A stretch of DNA of 64,000 nt from Escherichia coli (GTDB lineage Bacteria; Pseudomonadota; Gammaproteobacteria; Enterobacterales; Enterobacteriaceae): the NCBI RefSeq assembly GCF_016026235.1, contig NZ_CP065613.1. One strand, 5' to 3'. Shown here piece after piece: positions 848 through 41,523 of this stretch; within the stretch, counting starts at the first letter, position 1, and each line of letters begins with the position of its first letter. Under the pieces are notes generated by a model. The model was not told the DNA's origin. It made no database searches and saw only the letters and a list, made by a program, of their open reading frames with translations. Made by a program: the position numbers and the translations under genes.

Positions 848-1676
848 ACGCACACTCAGTCGCATCGGTTTTTACTGCGGGCTGGCGCTGTTTCTCATCA
901 TCACGCTATTTCCGTTTTTTGTGATGCTGATGACCTCGTTCAAGGGCGCGAAAGAGGCGATCTCACTGCATCCTACGCTGCTGCCGCAGCAGTGGACGCT
1001 GGAGCATTACGTCGACATTTTTAACCCGATGATTTTCCCGTTTGTCGACTACTTCCGTAACAGTCTGGTGGTGTCGGTGGTTTCATCCGTGGTGGCGGTA
1101 TTCCTCGGCATTCTTGGGGCTTACGCGCTTTCCCGCCTGCGCTTTAAAGGTCGGATGACCATCAATGCCAGCTTTTACACGGTGTATATGTTCTCTGGCA
1201 TTTTGCTGGTGGTGCCGCTGTTCAAAATCATCACCGCGCTGGGCATTTACGACACCGAGATGGCGCTGATCATCACCATGGTGACGCAAACTCTGCCCAC
1301 CGCCGTGTTTATGCTGAAAAGCTACTTCGACACCATCCCCGATGAGATCGAAGAAGCGGCGATGATGGATGGCCTCAACCGTCTGCAAATTATCTTCCGC
1401 ATCACCGTGCCGTTGGCGATGTCCGGGCTGATATCCGTGTTCGTCTACTGCTTTATGGTGGCGTGGAACGACTATCTGTTTGCGTCGATTTTCCTCTCCA
1501 GCGCCAGCAATTTCACCTTACCGGTGGGCCTGAACGCGCTGTTCAGTACGCCAGATTACATCTGGGGACGGATGATGGCGGCCTCACTGGTGACCGCATT
1601 GCCGGTGGTGATTATGTATGCGCTTTCGGAACGTTTTATTAAGAGTGGTTTGACCGCCGGTGGCGTGAAGGGCTAA
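834..1676 (+). CDS. ycjP: ABC sugar transporter permease
   Basis: 280-aa ORF, MalG-type permease features, overlaps ycjO end as in the operon. Confidence 0.9.
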   Translation: MATNKRTLSRIGFYCGLALFLIITLFPFFVMLMTSFKGAKEAISLHPTLLPQQWTLEHYVDIFNPMIFPFVDYFRNSLVVSVVSSVVAVFLGILGAYALSRLRFKGRMTINASFYTVYMFSGILLVVPLFKIITALGIYDTEMALIITMVTQTLPTAVFMLKSYFDTIPDEIEEAAMMDGLNRLQIIFRITVPLAMSGLISVFVYCFMVAWNDYLFASIFLSSASNFTLPVGLNALFSTPDYIWGRMMAASLVTALPVVIMYALSERFIKSGLTAGGVKG

Positions 1677-1706
1677 AGCGGCCAGTTTCTTTACAAGGAG
1701 TTTTAA

Positions 1707-2759
1707 ATGAAAAAGTTAGTAGCCACAGCACCCCGTGTTGCTGCGCTGGTTGAGTATGAAGATCGGGCGATTTTAGCCAATGAAGTGAAAATCCGCGTGC
1801 GTTTCGGCGCACCGAAACACGGAACGGAAGTGGTCGACTTCCGCGCCGCCAGCCCGTTTATCGATGAAGACTTTAACGGCGAATGGCAGATGTTCACTCC
1901 GCGTCCGGCAGATGCGCCGCGCGGCATTGAGTTTGGCAAATTCCAGCTTGGCAACATGGTGGTTGGCGACATTATCGAGTGCGGCAGCGACGTTACCGAC
2001 TACGCGGTGGGCGACAGCGTATGCGGCTACGGCCCGCTCTCCGAGACGGTCATCATTAACGCGGTGAATAACTACAAGCTGCGCAAAATGCCGGAAGGCA
2101 GCTCGTGGGAAAACGCCGTTTGTTACGACCCGGCGCAGTTTGCCATGAGCGGCGTGCGCGATGCCAACGTGCGCGTGGGTGATTTTGTTGTGGTGGTAGG
2201 GCTTGGCGCGATTGGTCAAATTGCCATTCAACTGGCGAAACGCGCTGGCGCGTCGGTCGTGATTGGCGTCGATCCTATCGCCCATCGCTGTGATATTGCC
2301 CGTCGCCACGGCGCGGATTTCTGCCTTAACCCCATTGGTACTGACGTAGGCAAAGAGATCAAAACGCTGACCGGCAAGCAGGGTGCCGATGTGATTATCG
2401 AAACCAGCGGCTATGCCGACGCGCTGCAATCGGCGTTCCGCGGTCTGGCCTACGGTGGCACCATCTCCTATGTCGCGTTTGCCAAACCATTTGCTGAAGG
2501 TTTTAACCTCGGACGCGAAGCGCATTTCAATAACGCCAAAATTGTTTTCTCCCGCGCGTGCAGCGAACCGAACCCGGATTATCCGCGCTGGAGCCGTAAG
2601 CGTATTGAAGAAACCTGCTGGGAACTGCTGATGAACGGTTATCTCAATTGCGAAGATTTAATCGACCCGGTAGTGACCTTTGCCAATAGCCCGGAAAGCT
2701 ACATGCAGTATGTCGATCAGCATCCGGAACAGAGCATCAAAATGGGCGTTACGTTTTAA
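1707..2759 (+). CDS. ycjQ: Zn-dependent sugar dehydrogenase (MDR family)
   Basis: 350-aa ORF with GxGxxG Rossmann motif; RBS aaggag upstream; synteny. Confidence 0.9.
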   Translation: MKKLVATAPRVAALVEYEDRAILANEVKIRVRFGAPKHGTEVVDFRAASPFIDEDFNGEWQMFTPRPADAPRGIEFGKFQLGNMVVGDIIECGSDVTDYAVGDSVCGYGPLSETVIINAVNNYKLRKMPEGSSWENAVCYDPAQFAMSGVRDANVRVGDFVVVVGLGAIGQIAIQLAKRAGASVVIGVDPIAHRCDIARRHGADFCLNPIGTDVGKEIKTLTGKQGADVIIETSGYADALQSAFRGLAYGGTISYVAFAKPFAEGFNLGREAHFNNAKIVFSRACSEPNPDYPRWSRKRIEETCWELLMNGYLNCEDLIDPVVTFANSPESYMQYVDQHPEQSIKMGVTF

Positions 2760-37370: not shown

Positions 37371-37603
37371 TGAGATCCCATTATTTTTATCAATTTTTGT
37401 TGCTATCCGATCGCAAAAAAGCCACGTCATATGATCAGATAATTCTGATAATGATAGACGCTATTTAACACTTCACACGGTTTGTATACGGAAAAGCATT
37501 TTGCTTTTTGTATTCAATTTAGACAGAATTTTATTAATCATTTCAGGGTAATGGGGTGATGAGATGTTGCGTAACAGGGCCAGAAGGCTAGACTACAAAA
37601 TAA

Positions 37604-38608
<1,005 letters not shown>

Positions 38609-38654
38609 CAAAAGCAATTTTTCCGGCTATCTGTATACAAAAACGCCGCAAAGT

Positions 38655-38668
38655 TTGAGCGAAGTCAA
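38655..38668. promoter_or_regulatory. FNR-binding site upstream of fnrS
   Basis: TTGAG-N4-GTCAA close to the TTGAT-N4-ATCAA consensus, about 40 bp upstream of the sRNA start. Confidence 0.6.
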
Positions 38669-38703
38669 TAAACTCTCTACCCATTCAGGGCAATATCTCT
38701 CTT

Positions 38704-38826
38704 GCAGGTGAATGCAACGTCAAGCGATGGGCGTTGCGCTCCATATTGTCTTACTTCCTTTTTTGAATTACTGCATAGCACAATTGATTCGTACGACGCC
38801 GACTTTGATGAGTCGGCTTTTTTTTG
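38704..38826 (+). ncRNA. fnrS: FNR-regulated small RNA FnrS
   Basis: GCAGGTGAATGCAACGTCAAGCGATGGGCG... ending in GCCGACTTTGATGAGTCGGC hairpin plus T-run; zntB-dbpA intergenic position. Confidence 0.8.
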
Positions 38827-38882
38827 CCTGTTATTTATCAGCGTCTACCCTTTAAGAGTCCACCCAATGACCGGAGGGAAAT

Positions 38883-39053
38883 ATGACGACACTTATTTAT
38901 TTGCAAATTCCTGTCCCTGAACCGATTCCTGGCGATCCTGTTCCAGTGCCCGATCCGATCCCTCGCCCGCAACCCATGCCTGACCCACCACCCGATGAAG
39001 AACCGATTAAATTGTCGCATCGTGAGCGTAGATCTGCGAGGATACGCGCCTGA
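38883..39053 (+). CDS. small proline-rich protein (56 aa), unknown function
   Basis: ATG preceded by ggaggg RBS; translation MTTLIYLQIPVPEPIPGDPVPVPDPIPRPQPMPDPPPDEE... Confidence 0.4.
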   Translation: MTTLIYLQIPVPEPIPGDPVPVPDPIPRPQPMPDPPPDEEPIKLSHRERRSARIRA

Positions 39054-39085
39054 TGACTTTGCGTCGATGACCACGAGAATAGATT

Positions 39086-40459
39086 GTGACCGCTTTTTCT
39101 ACCCTGAATGTTTTGCCTCCCGCCCAACTCACGAACCTTAATGAGTTGGGTTATTTAACCATGACGCCGGTGCAGGCCGCCGCGCTTCCGGCGATCCTTG
39201 CCGGAAAAGATGTTCGCGTGCAGGCGAAAACTGGCAGCGGCAAAACGGCGGCTTTTGGCCTCGGCTTGTTACAGCAAATTGATGCGTCGCTATTTCAAAC
39301 CCAGGCTTTAGTGCTGTGTCCTACGCGTGAACTGGCGGATCAGGTGGCAGGTGAATTGCGTCGGCTGGCGCGTTTTCTGCCAAATACCAAAATTTTGACG
39401 TTGTGCGGTGGTCAACCGTTCGGTATGCAGCGTGATTCGTTGCAACATGCGCCGCATATTATCGTGGCAACGCCGGGGCGTTTGCTGGATCACCTGCAAA
39501 AAGGCACGGTATCACTGGATGCGTTGAATACGCTGGTGATGGATGAGGCCGACCGCATGCTGGATATGGGATTTAGCGATGCCATTGATGATGTCATCCG
39601 TTTTGCGCCAGCATCTCGACAGACGCTTCTGTTTTCGGCAACCTGGCCGGAAGCCATCGCTGCAATCAGCGGACGAGTGCAACGCGATCCTTTGGCGATT
39701 GAAATTGACTCAACAGATGCTTTGCCACCCATTGAACAACAATTTTATGAGACATCCAGCAAAGGCAAAATTCCTCTGTTGCAACGGTTATTAAGCTTGC
39801 ATCAGCCATCCTCTTGCGTGGTGTTTTGCAATACCAAAAAAGATTGTCAGGCTGTCTGCGACGCGCTGAATGAAGTAGGGCAAAGTGCATTGTCGTTACA
39901 CGGCGATCTGGAGCAACGCGATCGCGATCAGACCCTGGTACGTTTTGCTAACGGTAGCGCCCGTGTACTGGTCGCGACTGATGTTGCTGCGCGTGGTCTG
40001 GATATAAAATCGCTTGAGCTGGTGGTGAACTTTGAGCTGGCGTGGGACCCTGAAGTTCATGTACATCGCATCGGCCGTACAGCTCGTGCAGGAAATAGCG
40101 GTCTGGCGATCAGTTTCTGTGCTCCGGAAGAAGCACAGCGGGCCAATATCATTTCTGACATGTTGCAGATAAAACTTAACTGGCAAACACCGCCAGTTAA
40201 TAGTTCCATTGTGCCGCTGGAAGCAGAAATGGCAACGTTGTGTATCGATGGCGGGAAAAAAGCCAAAATGCGCCCGGGTGATGTATTAGGTGCACTGACA
40301 GGAGATATCGGGCTTGATGGCGCAGATATTGGCAAAATCGCCGTGCATCCGGCGCATGTCTATGTCGCGGTCCGTCAGGCTGTTGCTCATAAAGCATGGA
40401 AACAGTTACAGGGCGGGAAGATTAAAGGAAAAACGTGCCGGGTGCGGTTATTAAAATAA
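39086..40459 (+). CDS. dbpA: ATP-dependent RNA helicase (DEAD-box)
   Basis: 457-aa ORF with AKTGSGKT, DEAD and SAT motifs. Confidence 0.92.
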   Translation: MTAFSTLNVLPPAQLTNLNELGYLTMTPVQAAALPAILAGKDVRVQAKTGSGKTAAFGLGLLQQIDASLFQTQALVLCPTRELADQVAGELRRLARFLPNTKILTLCGGQPFGMQRDSLQHAPHIIVATPGRLLDHLQKGTVSLDALNTLVMDEADRMLDMGFSDAIDDVIRFAPASRQTLLFSATWPEAIAAISGRVQRDPLAIEIDSTDALPPIEQQFYETSSKGKIPLLQRLLSLHQPSSCVVFCNTKKDCQAVCDALNEVGQSALSLHGDLEQRDRDQTLVRFANGSARVLVATDVAARGLDIKSLELVVNFELAWDPEVHVHRIGRTARAGNSGLAISFCAPEEAQRANIISDMLQIKLNWQTPPVNSSIVPLEAEMATLCIDGGKKAKMRPGDVLGALTGDIGLDGADIGKIAVHPAHVYVAVRQAVAHKAWKQLQGGKIKGKTCRVRLLK

Positions 40460-40587: not shown

Positions 40588-41523
40588 TTATTTCACTTCA
40601 ACCACATTCAGCCGTAACTCATCCAACTGATTTTCATCTTCTTCTGGCTGCCAGCCCGCCGGTTGTAGTGGGATCTCTTCGCGATCAAACGCCAGATCAC
40701 CCCCGTTAACCACTTCAGAACCGTGGGTGATGCCTTTGAAATCGAACAGGTTGGTATCGCACAGATGCGACGGCACCACATTCTGCATCGCGCTGAACAT
40801 CGTCTCGATACGCCCTGGATAACGTTTATCCCAGTCCCGCAACATGTCAGCAATCACCTGACGTTGCAGGTTAGGCTGTGAACCGCACAGGTTGCACGGA
40901 ATAATCGGGAACGCTTTTGCATCGGCAAATCGCTGAATATCTTTCTCGCGGCAGTAGGCCAGCGGACGAATAACGATATGTTTGCCATCATCGCTCATCA
41001 GTTTCGGAGGCATACCTTTCATCTTGCCGCCGTAGAACATATTTAAGAACAACGTTTGCAGGATATCGTCACGATGGTGGCCCAACGCGATCTTCGTCGC
41101 CCCCAGTTCCGTTGCGGTGCGATAAAGGATACCGCGACGTAGCCGAGAACACAGTGAGCAAGTGGTTTTGCCCTCTGGAATCTTCTCTTTCACGATACCG
41201 TAAGTGTTCTCTTCAACAATCTTGTACTCAACGCCCAGCTTTTCAAGATACTCGGGCAGAACGTGTTCCGGGAAGCCCGGTTGCTTTTGATCGAGGTTAA
41301 CAGCCACCAGCGAAAAATTGATTGGCGCGCTTTGCTGCAAATTGCGCAGAATCTCCAGCATGGTATAGCTGTCTTTACCCCCGGAGAGGCAAACCATGAT
41401 GCGATCGCCTTCTTCAATCATATTGAAGTCAGCAATGGCTTCGCCCACGTTACGACGCAGACGTTTTTGTAATTTGTTCAGATTGTATTGTTCTTTCTTT
41501 GTAATTTGTTGATTTTCTTGCAT
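40588..41523 (-). CDS. ttcA: tRNA 2-thiocytidine biosynthesis protein
   Basis: 311-aa ORF with PP-loop SGGKDS and CxxC pairs; followed directly by the prophage integrase. Confidence 0.9.

Follow-up and report, generated by a model that had tools for sequence, protein, structure and literature searches.

We find that the short open reading frame at 38883..39053 on the plus strand of the window, by which we mean the whole 64,000-nucleotide stretch of Escherichia coli DNA analysed here (contig NZ_CP065613.1), is ynaL (K-12 b4743), a previously annotated and experimentally detected gene for a proline-rich small protein. Our preferred reading is that ynaL is a genuine translated gene with a role of its own and that, in the Enterobacteriaceae, it probably acts in addition as an upstream cistron coupled to dbpA. 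The gene was already known, and the modest new observation concerns the ynaL-dbpA junction. There, about 40 nt are frozen across the Enterobacteriaceae even where they are untranslated, which makes them a candidate for a discrete element controlling dbpA.

The identity of the gene is supported by the list of open reading frames, by RefSeq and by Pfam. The coding sequence starts with ATG and ends with TGA (stop included in the coordinates), and its translation is exactly the 56-aa sequence quoted in the earlier note, which had rightly called it proline-rich, with Pro at 16 of the 56 residues. The identical 56-aa allele is present in RefSeq with the same bounds (WP_001625136.1), under the product name "proline-rich small protein YnaL". 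The protein also matches Pfam PF23677 ('Protein YnaL-like'), a narrow enterobacterial family defined by YnaL, with 131.7 bits (E 8.8e-39; gathering cut-off 27 bits) across residues 1-56 of the 57 profile positions. An exact-sequence look-up of the K-12 and window YnaL alleles in a protein collection returned no match. In K-12, YnaL was seen in 2018 by immunoblot of a chromosomal SPA tag, its translation is also backed by tetracycline ribosome profiling, and YnaL-SPA accumulates in the wild type as the full-length tagged protein (PMC6001520). Thus, the comparison with annotated small proteins that the earlier note had proposed leads directly to ynaL, and the note was mistaken in treating the frame as unannotated, given its RefSeq annotation and its verification by immunoblot.

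The locus is present in 5392 of 5426 complete E. coli genomes, and every sampled entry is annotated ynaL. The window carries a minority allele: 349 of 5391 genomes contain an exact 66-nt match, and O157:H7 is among the ~6% of complete E. coli genomes that have it. The K-12 form has 57 aa and ends in ...IRAC (TGC TAA), whereas the window form has 56 aa and ends in ...IRA (TGA TGA), so that the two proteins have the same sequence save for the final residue, the C-terminal Cys being absent from the window. The Shine-Dalgarno sequence also differs, GGAGGG in the window and AGAGGG in K-12.

The ynaL frame is kept in at least 12 genera, across the Enterobacteriaceae and into Erwiniaceae-type relatives, with a dN/dS of ~0.14, and the variability of codon positions 1, 2 and 3 (0.051, 0.016 and 0.382, respectively, in 34 loci) has the periodicity of coding sequence. 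The earlier note had suggested examining conservation and codon substitution, and had named loss of the frame in relatives as the result that would count against it; this objection fails because third positions vary freely and the Pro-rich core is fixed. Insertions and deletions within ynaL are in-frame only, as in the 33-nt deletion of E. coli E69. One could imagine that a short frame in an intergenic-looking gap is a chance product of regulatory DNA between fnrS and dbpA, the more so as proline-rich, C-rich sequence leaves frames open on both strands. However, the coding periodicity, the dN/dS, the existence of a Pfam family, the conserved Shine-Dalgarno sequence and start codon, the restriction to in-frame indels and the immunoblot detection have already refuted this reading, to which we attach practically no probability.

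Within the peptide, the conservation is uneven. The N-terminal segment (residues 1-15, 38883..38927, plus strand) keeps neither its sequence nor its length among homologs. The Pro-rich core (residues 16-40, 38928..39002, plus strand), which includes the motif D-PPP-D, is near-invariant in its amino acids; its synonymous sites are free, with the Pro codons represented by 3-4 synonyms per column, and it is also conserved in the distant Erwiniaceae-type forms. AlphaFold models YnaL with a pLDDT of ~90 and no secondary structure, that is, as an extended chain. Selection works on the YnaL peptide itself, with a variable N-terminus and an acidic Pro-rich core that is predicted to be extended.

The surroundings of ynaL on its upstream side are constant. 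The fnrS sRNA gene (38704..38821, plus strand; Rfam RF01796, 134.8 bits) ends in an intrinsic terminator found by a terminator scan at 38798..38825 on the same strand, with a stem-loop at 38798..38817 (8-bp stem, 5 GC pairs) followed by T8. As the earlier note had stated, ynaL lies just past this terminator and before dbpA: it begins 61 nt 3' of the fnrS Rfam match, and its stop is 32 nt 5' of the dbpA GTG. Rfam places fnrS directly 5' of ynaL in all 14 other loci tested, and a CorA-family gene (zntB) is found upstream in every ynaL context listed; the window shows this same family position, directly after fnrS with zntB before. Overlapping the tail of the fnrS terminator, we propose a putative ynaL promoter (38824..38851, plus strand) composed of TTGCCT (38824..38829), a 16-nt spacer and TACCCT (38846..38851). 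Both boxes, with an exact 16-nt spacer of variable sequence, are present in 32 of 40 loci, some of which have no adjacent dbpA. A consensus promoter scan of 38500..39300 found no promoter, the TACCCT -10 being too weak for such a scan to report. It is from this weak promoter that ynaL would probably be transcribed, with a predicted start near 38857. The ribosome-binding site is strong: the GGAGGG that the earlier note had pointed to lies at 38873..38878 (plus strand), 4 nt 5' of the ATG; its duplex with the anti-SD is predicted at -10.0 kcal/mol (mean -9.5 kcal/mol in 26 loci), and its GGAGG is kept across genera.

The gene dbpA, encoding the ATP-dependent RNA helicase DbpA, occupies 39086..40459 (plus strand) in both the list of open reading frames and RefSeq. 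Its initiation region (39070..39099, plus strand), delimited by conserved boxes, consists of an SD-like ACCACGAGA (39070..39078) and ATTGTGACCGCTTTTTC with the GTG at 39086. The dbpA anti-SD duplex reaches only -3.0 kcal/mol, the start codon is GTG in 26 of 26 loci, and in the minimum free energy fold a local CACGA/UUGUG hairpin covers it. Across genera the gap from the ynaL stop to the GTG measures 23-32 nt, with 14 nt in Klebsiella and 57 nt in an E. hormaechei clade. The junction combines a short gap with a weak downstream initiation site, as expected of translationally coupled cistrons.

Two blocks at this junction are conserved far beyond the level seen in dbpA. In block 1 (CCGATTAAATTGTCGCAT, codons P41-H46, 39003..39020, plus strand), five of the six codon columns are at least 95% codon-identical in 30 genomes, compared with 6% of the dbpA columns in the same genomes. 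In block 2 (AGATCTGCGAGGATACGCGCC, codons R50-A56, 39030..39050, plus strand), which includes the rare codons AGA, AGG and ATA, all seven codon columns are invariant, and the longest such run in the 458 codons of dbpA is two. A 19-nt probe from block 2 matches with 0-1 mismatch in 43 of 43 loci where ynaL abuts dbpA; it has no match in L043, L044/45 or L047/48, and block 1 is likewise diverged or missing where dbpA is not adjacent.

These exceptional loci are informative about the purpose of the gene. In L043 and L047/48 the order is zntB-fnrS-ynaL-terminator-ttcA(-) with no adjacent dbpA, and in L044/45 ttcA sits between ynaL and dbpA. In strains of the Mixta/Pantoea type, ynaL stands on its own. 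A leader ORF should occur only with the gene that it regulates, yet ynaL is also found without an adjacent dbpA. Because relatives keep ynaL without a neighboring dbpA, control of dbpA cannot be its sole or ancestral purpose, and the combination of peptide-level selection with this retention leads us to conclude that the YnaL peptide, or its making, has a role of its own. The cis-regulatory role for dbpA that had been suggested earlier can therefore be kept only in part. As the sole role of ynaL it is contradicted by the loci without adjacent dbpA and by the lack of a conserved RNA switch; in the Enterobacteriaceae it has circumstantial support from the tight spacing, the strong ynaL and weak dbpA ribosome-binding sites and the junction-specific invariant nucleotides. 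Since conservation of the YnaL peptide does not depend on dbpA, YnaL merits study as a protein or as a nascent chain.

How the ribosome might respond to ynaL is suggested by its proline codons. The window YnaL has a single PPP (residues 35-37, 38985..38993, plus strand), in the context D-PPP-D (residues 34-38). Of 111 informative cluster representatives, 106 have PPP, whereas three have PSP and two have PPQ in its place. Among stalling motifs PPP is in the strongest class, and an Asp on either side increases diprolyl stalling (PMC4176338); stalling is context dependent and only a minority of PPX motifs pause (PMC4140641). D-PPP-D is a PPP in the strong XPPX context that characterizes EF-P substrates, and it is reasonable to predict from this motif that ynaL translation depends on EF-P. 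We found no experiment, dataset or publication connecting ynaL with EF-P or with the expression of dbpA.

It would be tempting to go further and regard ynaL as nothing but a leader, an upstream ORF sensing EF-P or proline whose stalling sets dbpA expression and whose peptide is functionless. The strong stalling context of D-PPP-D, the tight and conserved spacing to a weak dbpA initiation region, the invariant nucleotides confined to the junction, and a conserved part that comprises the final ~40 residues, which we take to be about as much chain as the exit tunnel accommodates, would all fit such a leader. There is also precedent in mgtP and mgtL, Pro-codon leader ORFs of Salmonella mgtCBR and mgtA that mediate EF-P- and proline-responsive attenuation (PMC5299641, PMC6460261). 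Like ynaL, they are short same-strand upstream ORFs with consecutive Pro codons, in which the level of EF-P is expected to alter ribosome progress. However, the mgt leaders depend on a choice between stem-loops within a long leader RNA, and no such conserved structures were found for ynaL; YnaL also far exceeds them in length, its peptide sequence is conserved, and its gene is retained in the absence of the downstream one. Indeed, the promoter-like box, the strong Shine-Dalgarno sequence and the Pro core are all kept in L043 and L047/48, where a terminator follows and no dbpA lies downstream. Moreover, no alternative RNA structures with covariation were detected, several species have PSP or PPQ in place of PPP, ~25 residues are conserved in their amino acids, far beyond the needs of a PPP stall, and tagged YnaL is stable enough to accumulate. 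On balance we consider a leader of this pure kind unlikely.

The retention of ynaL without dbpA could also be taken in the opposite direction: YnaL would be a stand-alone protein acting in trans, its adjacency to dbpA would be incidental, and the two blocks would form an independent control site of dbpA, such as an operator, a target of an sRNA or a protein-binding site. In agreement with this, dbpA is equipped with an SD-like box and a start codon of its own, and block 2 is conserved regardless of translation, remaining intact where an early stop precedes it (TAG in E. hormaechei and E. cancerogenus, TGA in L046). However, the blocks do not travel with dbpA in L044, where ttcA separates it from ynaL; across genera the ynaL-dbpA gap stays at 23-32 nt; the promoter scan gave no consensus match between the two genes; and the candidate partners FnrS, ArcZ and 23S rRNA do no better than controls. 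We give an independent site some limited weight, as a possible but doubtful account of the junction.

The candidate partners and mechanisms were judged as follows. For FnrS, the best pairing to block 1 or to the initiation region of either dbpA or ynaL reached -17.9 kcal/mol, compared with a shuffle mean of -17.4. For autoregulation through mimicry of the DbpA-binding region of 23S rRNA (nt 2454-2606, hairpin 92), the local alignment scored 14, and shuffles averaged 14.5. Pairing of the ArcZ seed to block 2 (15 bp, -28 kcal/mol) was rejected as evidence, as shuffles match it in 13% of trials; the 64-kb window contains 75 + 88 (163) equal-or-better sites for ArcZ, and the literature yielded no link. 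A sigma-70 promoter for dbpA within ynaL was also dismissed, as the scan gave no consensus site and inspection by eye gave no conserved, correctly spaced -35/-10 pair; other sigma factors were covered by visual inspection only. The invariance is not explained by overlapping coding either, because the alternative-frame ATG is not kept and the relation of the frame to dbpA differs from genus to genus. Antisense coding would constrain the Pro core too, yet the Pro core varies freely. An Rfam search of 38820..39160, even at E <= 10, returned no matches.

An RNA switch spanning ynaL and the start of dbpA was likewise unsupported. RNAalifold paired GUCGC of block 1 with GUGAC of dbpA, and GAAGAA with UUUUUC, but all of these pairs are invariant and the single-sequence z-score is -0.38. 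The helix between block 1 and the GUG has a mean ensemble probability of 0.03 in 34 loci; the dbpA GUG instead finds a local partner in the CACGA box. Block 2 could show GGA in the loop of a hairpin (UGCG-AGGAUA-CGCG), but the probability predicted for this hairpin is low. The consensus fold of the junction by itself reaches -6.8 kcal/mol with 0 compensatory pairs, a lack of covariation that stems in part from low power, given that the blocks show no variation. The alternative RNA structures set by ribosome position that define an attenuator were not found.

We are left with the coupling of dbpA to the translation of ynaL as our preferred reading. In the Enterobacteriaceae, ynaL and dbpA would have come to form a pair with ynaL as the upstream cistron. 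Ribosomes would load at the strong ynaL site, pass D-PPP-D, where they are expected to need EF-P, then read the two invariant blocks peculiar to this junction and stop translating 23-32 nt short of the weak dbpA GTG. The synthesis of DbpA would most likely be coupled to the flux of ribosomes through ynaL, either by re-initiation or by transcription-translation coupling. Simple termination-reinitiation coupling would be weaker in the E. hormaechei clade, because there ynaL ends 57 nt before dbpA. As regards the second route, EF-P is known to maintain transcription-translation coupling at polyproline ORFs (PMC5021804). That system resembles ynaL-dbpA in having an upstream cistron with PPP, where a stall could expose the RNA to Rho and lower expression of the downstream gene; the ynaL-dbpA locus is not mentioned in that study.

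We could speculate that the coupling forms a feedback module, in which the flux through the poly-Pro YnaL reports on peptidyl-transferase performance and sets DbpA synthesis through a junction RNA element (39003..39020 plus 39030..39050). Its inputs would be EF-P status, proline supply and the quality of the peptidyl-transferase center (PTC), and its output would be DbpA, the helicase that remodels PTC hairpin 92 during 50S assembly; the YnaL peptide may itself also act on the ribosome tunnel. This extension is a long shot. If ynaL translation does gate dbpA, EF-P-dependent translation of poly-Pro sequences would be linked to ribosome assembly; otherwise the finding amounts to a correctly spotted annotated small gene. 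Deletion of dbpA has little phenotype (PMC1616957).

The C-terminal part of YnaL deserves separate mention. The distant YnaL forms carry a second PPP right before the stop (...DPPPH[RM]*), and the conserved segment lies towards the C-terminus of a chain that is predicted to be extended rather than folded and whose N-terminus is free to vary. It could be argued from these features that the ~40 C-terminal residues pause elongation or termination through the exit tunnel, with or without the involvement of EF-P, in the manner of SecM, TnaC and MifM, which share with YnaL a conserved C-terminal segment, a variable N-terminus and a position just upstream of another cistron. However, YnaL tails differ between lineages: the family has three types, RSARIRA[C], KLSH[R] and DPPPH[RM], with no motif common to them, and the RSARIRA tail is dispensable in one Enterobacter clade. 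In addition, the full-length tagged protein is produced. Arrest by the nascent chain thus seems quite improbable.

With regard to composition, the proline-rich spacer of TonB (PF16031; NCBIfam NF008084) is, like YnaL, built of alternating X-Pro and forms an extended rod. The likeness is compositional only, as YnaL scores 10.6 bits against PF16031 (cut-off 33) and 20.5 bits against the NCBIfam TonB model (cut-off 315), well short of membership in either. The Erwiniaceae-type C-terminus, ...DPPPHR, also bears a resemblance to what we take to be the C-terminus of apidaecin-type proline-rich peptides.

The proline-rich ORF between fnrS and dbpA is ynaL, a small gene that is translated, constrained at the peptide level and linked to fnrS. 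Its position and 56-aa product (plus strand, ATG at 38883 to TGA at 39053; MTTLIYLQIPVPEPIPGDPVPVPDPIPRPQPMPDPPPDEEPIKLSHRERRSARIRA) are as the earlier note stated, and so are the GGAGGG Shine-Dalgarno (38873..38878, plus strand, 4 nt 5' of the ATG; its anti-SD duplex is predicted at -10.0 kcal/mol) and the place after the fnrS terminator (38798..38817 plus T-run). The fnrS gene occupies 38704..38821 (Rfam RF01796, 134.8 bits), and dbpA starts with a GTG at 39086, 32 nt 3' of the ynaL stop. This group is flanked by zntB (37625..38608) and, on the other side, by ttcA on the minus strand (40588..41523). Just 5' of zntB, ynaN, a 15-codon micro-ORF annotated in K-12, is intact at 37564..37611.

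A check against annotated small proteins showed that the ORF cannot be presented as unannotated: the feature is already known, being annotated, named, detected as a protein and included in Pfam. A 601-nt query around the ORF has a match of at least 95% identity in 5392 of 5426 complete E. coli genomes, and every row sampled from these names the CDS ynaL ("proline-rich small protein YnaL" or "protein YnaL"). Its K-12 MG1655 counterpart is b4743 (1409308-1409481), between fnrS (b4699) and dbpA (b1343), and the identical 171-nt CDS is annotated as WP_001625136.1 in a genome that shares 100% identity with the window across the query. The product scores 131.7 bits against Pfam PF23677 "YnaL", for which the gathering score is 27. 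The name was given by VanOrsdel et al. in 2018, who saw YnaL-SPA expressed from the chromosomal locus by immunoblot in LB cultures, noted that a tetracycline ribosome-profiling screen had also picked up the gene, and raised the possibility of a ynaL-dbpA operon (PMC6001520). We regard it as virtually certain that ynaL is a real gene. The window carries an allele with a stronger Shine-Dalgarno than K-12 (GGAGGG versus AGAGGG, 38872..38878) and a different 3' end (GCC TGA TGA versus GCC TGC TAA, 39048..39056), whose stop comes one codon earlier, so that YnaL has 56 aa instead of 57, without the Cys at its C-terminus. Of 5391 complete E. coli genomes, 349 (O157:H7 among them) match this allele exactly over 66 nt.

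A protein search returned 162 homologs, every one with PF23677, from Escherichia, Salmonella, Citrobacter, Enterobacter, Klebsiella, Leclercia, Lelliottia, Kosakonia and other Enterobacteriaceae. The family is narrow: when 1.84 billion cluster representatives were searched exhaustively with a profile, 34 clusters only were found. In the alignment, about 15 variable N-terminal residues precede a near-invariant DPVPxPDPIPRPQPMPDPPPDEEPIK(L/M)SH, which is followed by three variable residues and RSARIRA(C). Genomic loci were obtained for 30 hits (one, L030, a false positive), with 17 more added by exact-protein look-up. Over the last 33 codons dN/dS is 0.14 (pooled Nei-Gojobori), and across 34 loci the 18 codons of the proline core have mean minor-allele fractions of 0.051, 0.016 and 0.382 at codon positions 1, 2 and 3, a clear sign of coding in the ynaL frame. 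The frame is also kept in E. coli strain E69 despite a 33-nt deletion (locus L009, 2501..2635 in its own coordinates). These three lines of evidence answer the possibility, raised in the earlier note, that relatives do not keep the reading frame: it is conserved, and ynaL is under purifying selection at the peptide level. The E69 deletion falls within the repetitive proline-rich part, removing PVPEPIPGDPV and leaving a 46-aa ORF. AlphaFold, run with a 30-sequence alignment, gives a mean pLDDT of 75 (about 90 at residues 21-40) without secondary structure. YnaL, with 8 D/E and 7 K/R, is thereby modelled as an extended, polyproline-II-like chain that is acidic in the centre and basic in the tail. 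Its likeness to the proline-rich spacer of TonB is compositional only.

Distant members of the family keep the proline core, with P.P.DP.P.P.P.P.PQP.PDP invariant, and differ in their tails. One type ends in ...EEPIKLSR* or ...EEVPYKLSRV*; the other, which includes Mixta gaviniae (Erwiniaceae), ends in ...DPPPH[RM]*, with a second PPP just 5' of the stop. Erwiniaceae-type ynaL (2501..2647 in the fetched loci L043 and L047; 2501..2656 in L044) follows fnrS and has no adjacent dbpA. The order is zntB, fnrS, ynaL and convergent ttcA, with dbpA absent, in L043 and L047/48, and zntB, fnrS, ynaL, ttcA(+), dbpA in L044/45. In L043 a GC-rich hairpin (GCCCTCT-gaga-AGAGGGC) directly follows the ynaL stop, and then comes the ttcA 3' end. 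Since fnrS lies upstream of ynaL in 14 of 14 loci tested and dbpA is not always present, the constant partner of ynaL is fnrS/zntB. Moreover, ynaL is maintained where there is nothing downstream to regulate, so acting as a leader peptide for dbpA can be neither its only function nor its original one. This retention without dbpA is a modest new observation.

In Enterobacteriaceae, ynaL abuts dbpA through a junction with invariant nucleotides. Among 30 genomes there is almost no synonymous change in two blocks, codons P41-H46 (block 1, CCG ATT AAA TTG TCG CAT, 39003..39020) and R50-A56 (block 2, AGA TCT GCG AGG ATA CGC GCC, 39030..39050), and the rare codons AGA, AGG and ATA are fixed within them across about 12 genera. 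With dbpA of the same genomes as control, 6% of conserved-residue codon columns were at least 95% codon-identical, the longest run being 2 in 458 codons; ynaL has a run of 7 such columns and a block with 5 of 6. YnaL of Enterobacter hormaechei and E. cancerogenus stops at ...KLSHR, owing to a TAG immediately 3' of ...TCG CAT CGT, and all 21 nt of block 2 are intact in the untranslated spacer, as they also are after an early TGA in locus L046 (2620..2680). Block 2 is therefore conserved for something other than the peptide. The TAG marks a multi-species Enterobacter clade (hormaechei, quasihormaechei, cancerogenus; loci L049 and L051, about 1618..1734) with a YnaL of 48-50 aa, in which the RSARIRA tail is thus dispensable. 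A 19-nt block 2 probe matches with 0-1 mismatch in each of the 43 loci in which dbpA immediately follows ynaL. L043, L044/45 and L047/48, which lack this arrangement, give no match to the probe, and their block 1 is diverged or missing; a search upstream of dbpA in L044, where ttcA intervenes, did not find the blocks. They are therefore specific to the ynaL-dbpA junction, again a modest new observation. Together with the persistence of ynaL where dbpA is not adjacent, the blocks make the regulatory question experimentally tractable.

Several explanations for the blocks were considered. RNAalifold suggested a helix between block 1 and the region of the dbpA start codon, but all of its pairs are invariant and so carry no covariation information. 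In the structure ensembles of 34 loci the mean probability of this helix is 0.03; the single-sequence z-score is -0.38, and a junction-only consensus fold (-6.8 kcal/mol) has 0 compensatory pairs. Searches of the block region gave no Rfam family match and no sigma-70 consensus promoter. ArcZ seed pairing reaches 15 bp on block 2, yet the 64-kb window holds 163 equal-or-better sites, and it was rejected; so was mimicry of the DbpA-bound 23S rRNA region, to which there is no similarity. Pairing of FnrS with the junction was rejected as equal to shuffles. Its best form joins FnrS nt 75-96 (38778..38799) to 39060..39089, covering the dbpA SD-like box and start codon (CACAAU:AUUGUG and UUCGU:ACGAG, -17.9 kcal/mol); shuffled controls were as good.

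Directly after the T-run of the fnrS terminator, TTGCCT (38824..38829), exactly 16 nt of variable sequence and TACCCT (38846..38851) recur in 32 of 40 loci, also where dbpA is not adjacent; in three Citrobacter loci the spacer is 7 nt. The pair resembles a weak sigma-70 promoter for ynaL itself, with a -35 that overlaps the terminator tail. The putative -10 is too poor for a consensus promoter scan.

Stalling is strongest at poly-Pro and is enhanced by Asp before or after a diprolyl motif (PMC4176338), and by sequence the D-PPP-D of YnaL falls in the strongest EF-P-dependent class. Ribosome throughput on ynaL may accordingly depend on EF-P, and in Enterobacteriaceae it could be coupled to dbpA translation or to completion of the transcript. 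When EF-P is missing, ribosomes that stall in poly-Pro ORFs no longer keep transcription and translation coupled, and Rho-dependent termination becomes possible (PMC5021804); this would offer a second route from ynaL to dbpA. The cis role that the earlier note proposed, unpublished as far as the literature searched shows, is partly supported within Enterobacteriaceae by the junction-specific blocks, by tight spacing (23-32 nt from the ynaL stop to the GTG; 14 nt in Klebsiella, with a longer YnaL) and by weak dbpA initiation signals (GTG in 26 of 26 loci; an SD-like box at -3.0 kcal/mol versus an average of -9.5 kcal/mol for ynaL). It fails as a general explanation, ynaL being kept without dbpA. 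Counting against over-reading this link, most PPX motifs do not pause in vivo (PMC4140641), 5 of 111 cluster representatives have another sequence in place of PPP (PSP for E. albertii and a Citrobacter group, PPQ for C. amalonaticus), ynaL terminates 57 nt 5' of dbpA in the E. hormaechei clade, and the literature searched held no paper connecting ynaL with EF-P or dbpA expression. On balance, translation of ynaL is probably EF-P-dependent to a measurable degree, an influence on dbpA expression in cis is a serious but tentative proposition, and it is very unlikely that such influence is the only function of ynaL. At the dbpA start, a hairpin (CACGA / UUGUG, 39072..39088) pairs the conserved SD-like box with the GTG and may contribute to weak initiation; the pairing is kept as wobble pairs in other genera, through one-sided A to G and C to U changes.
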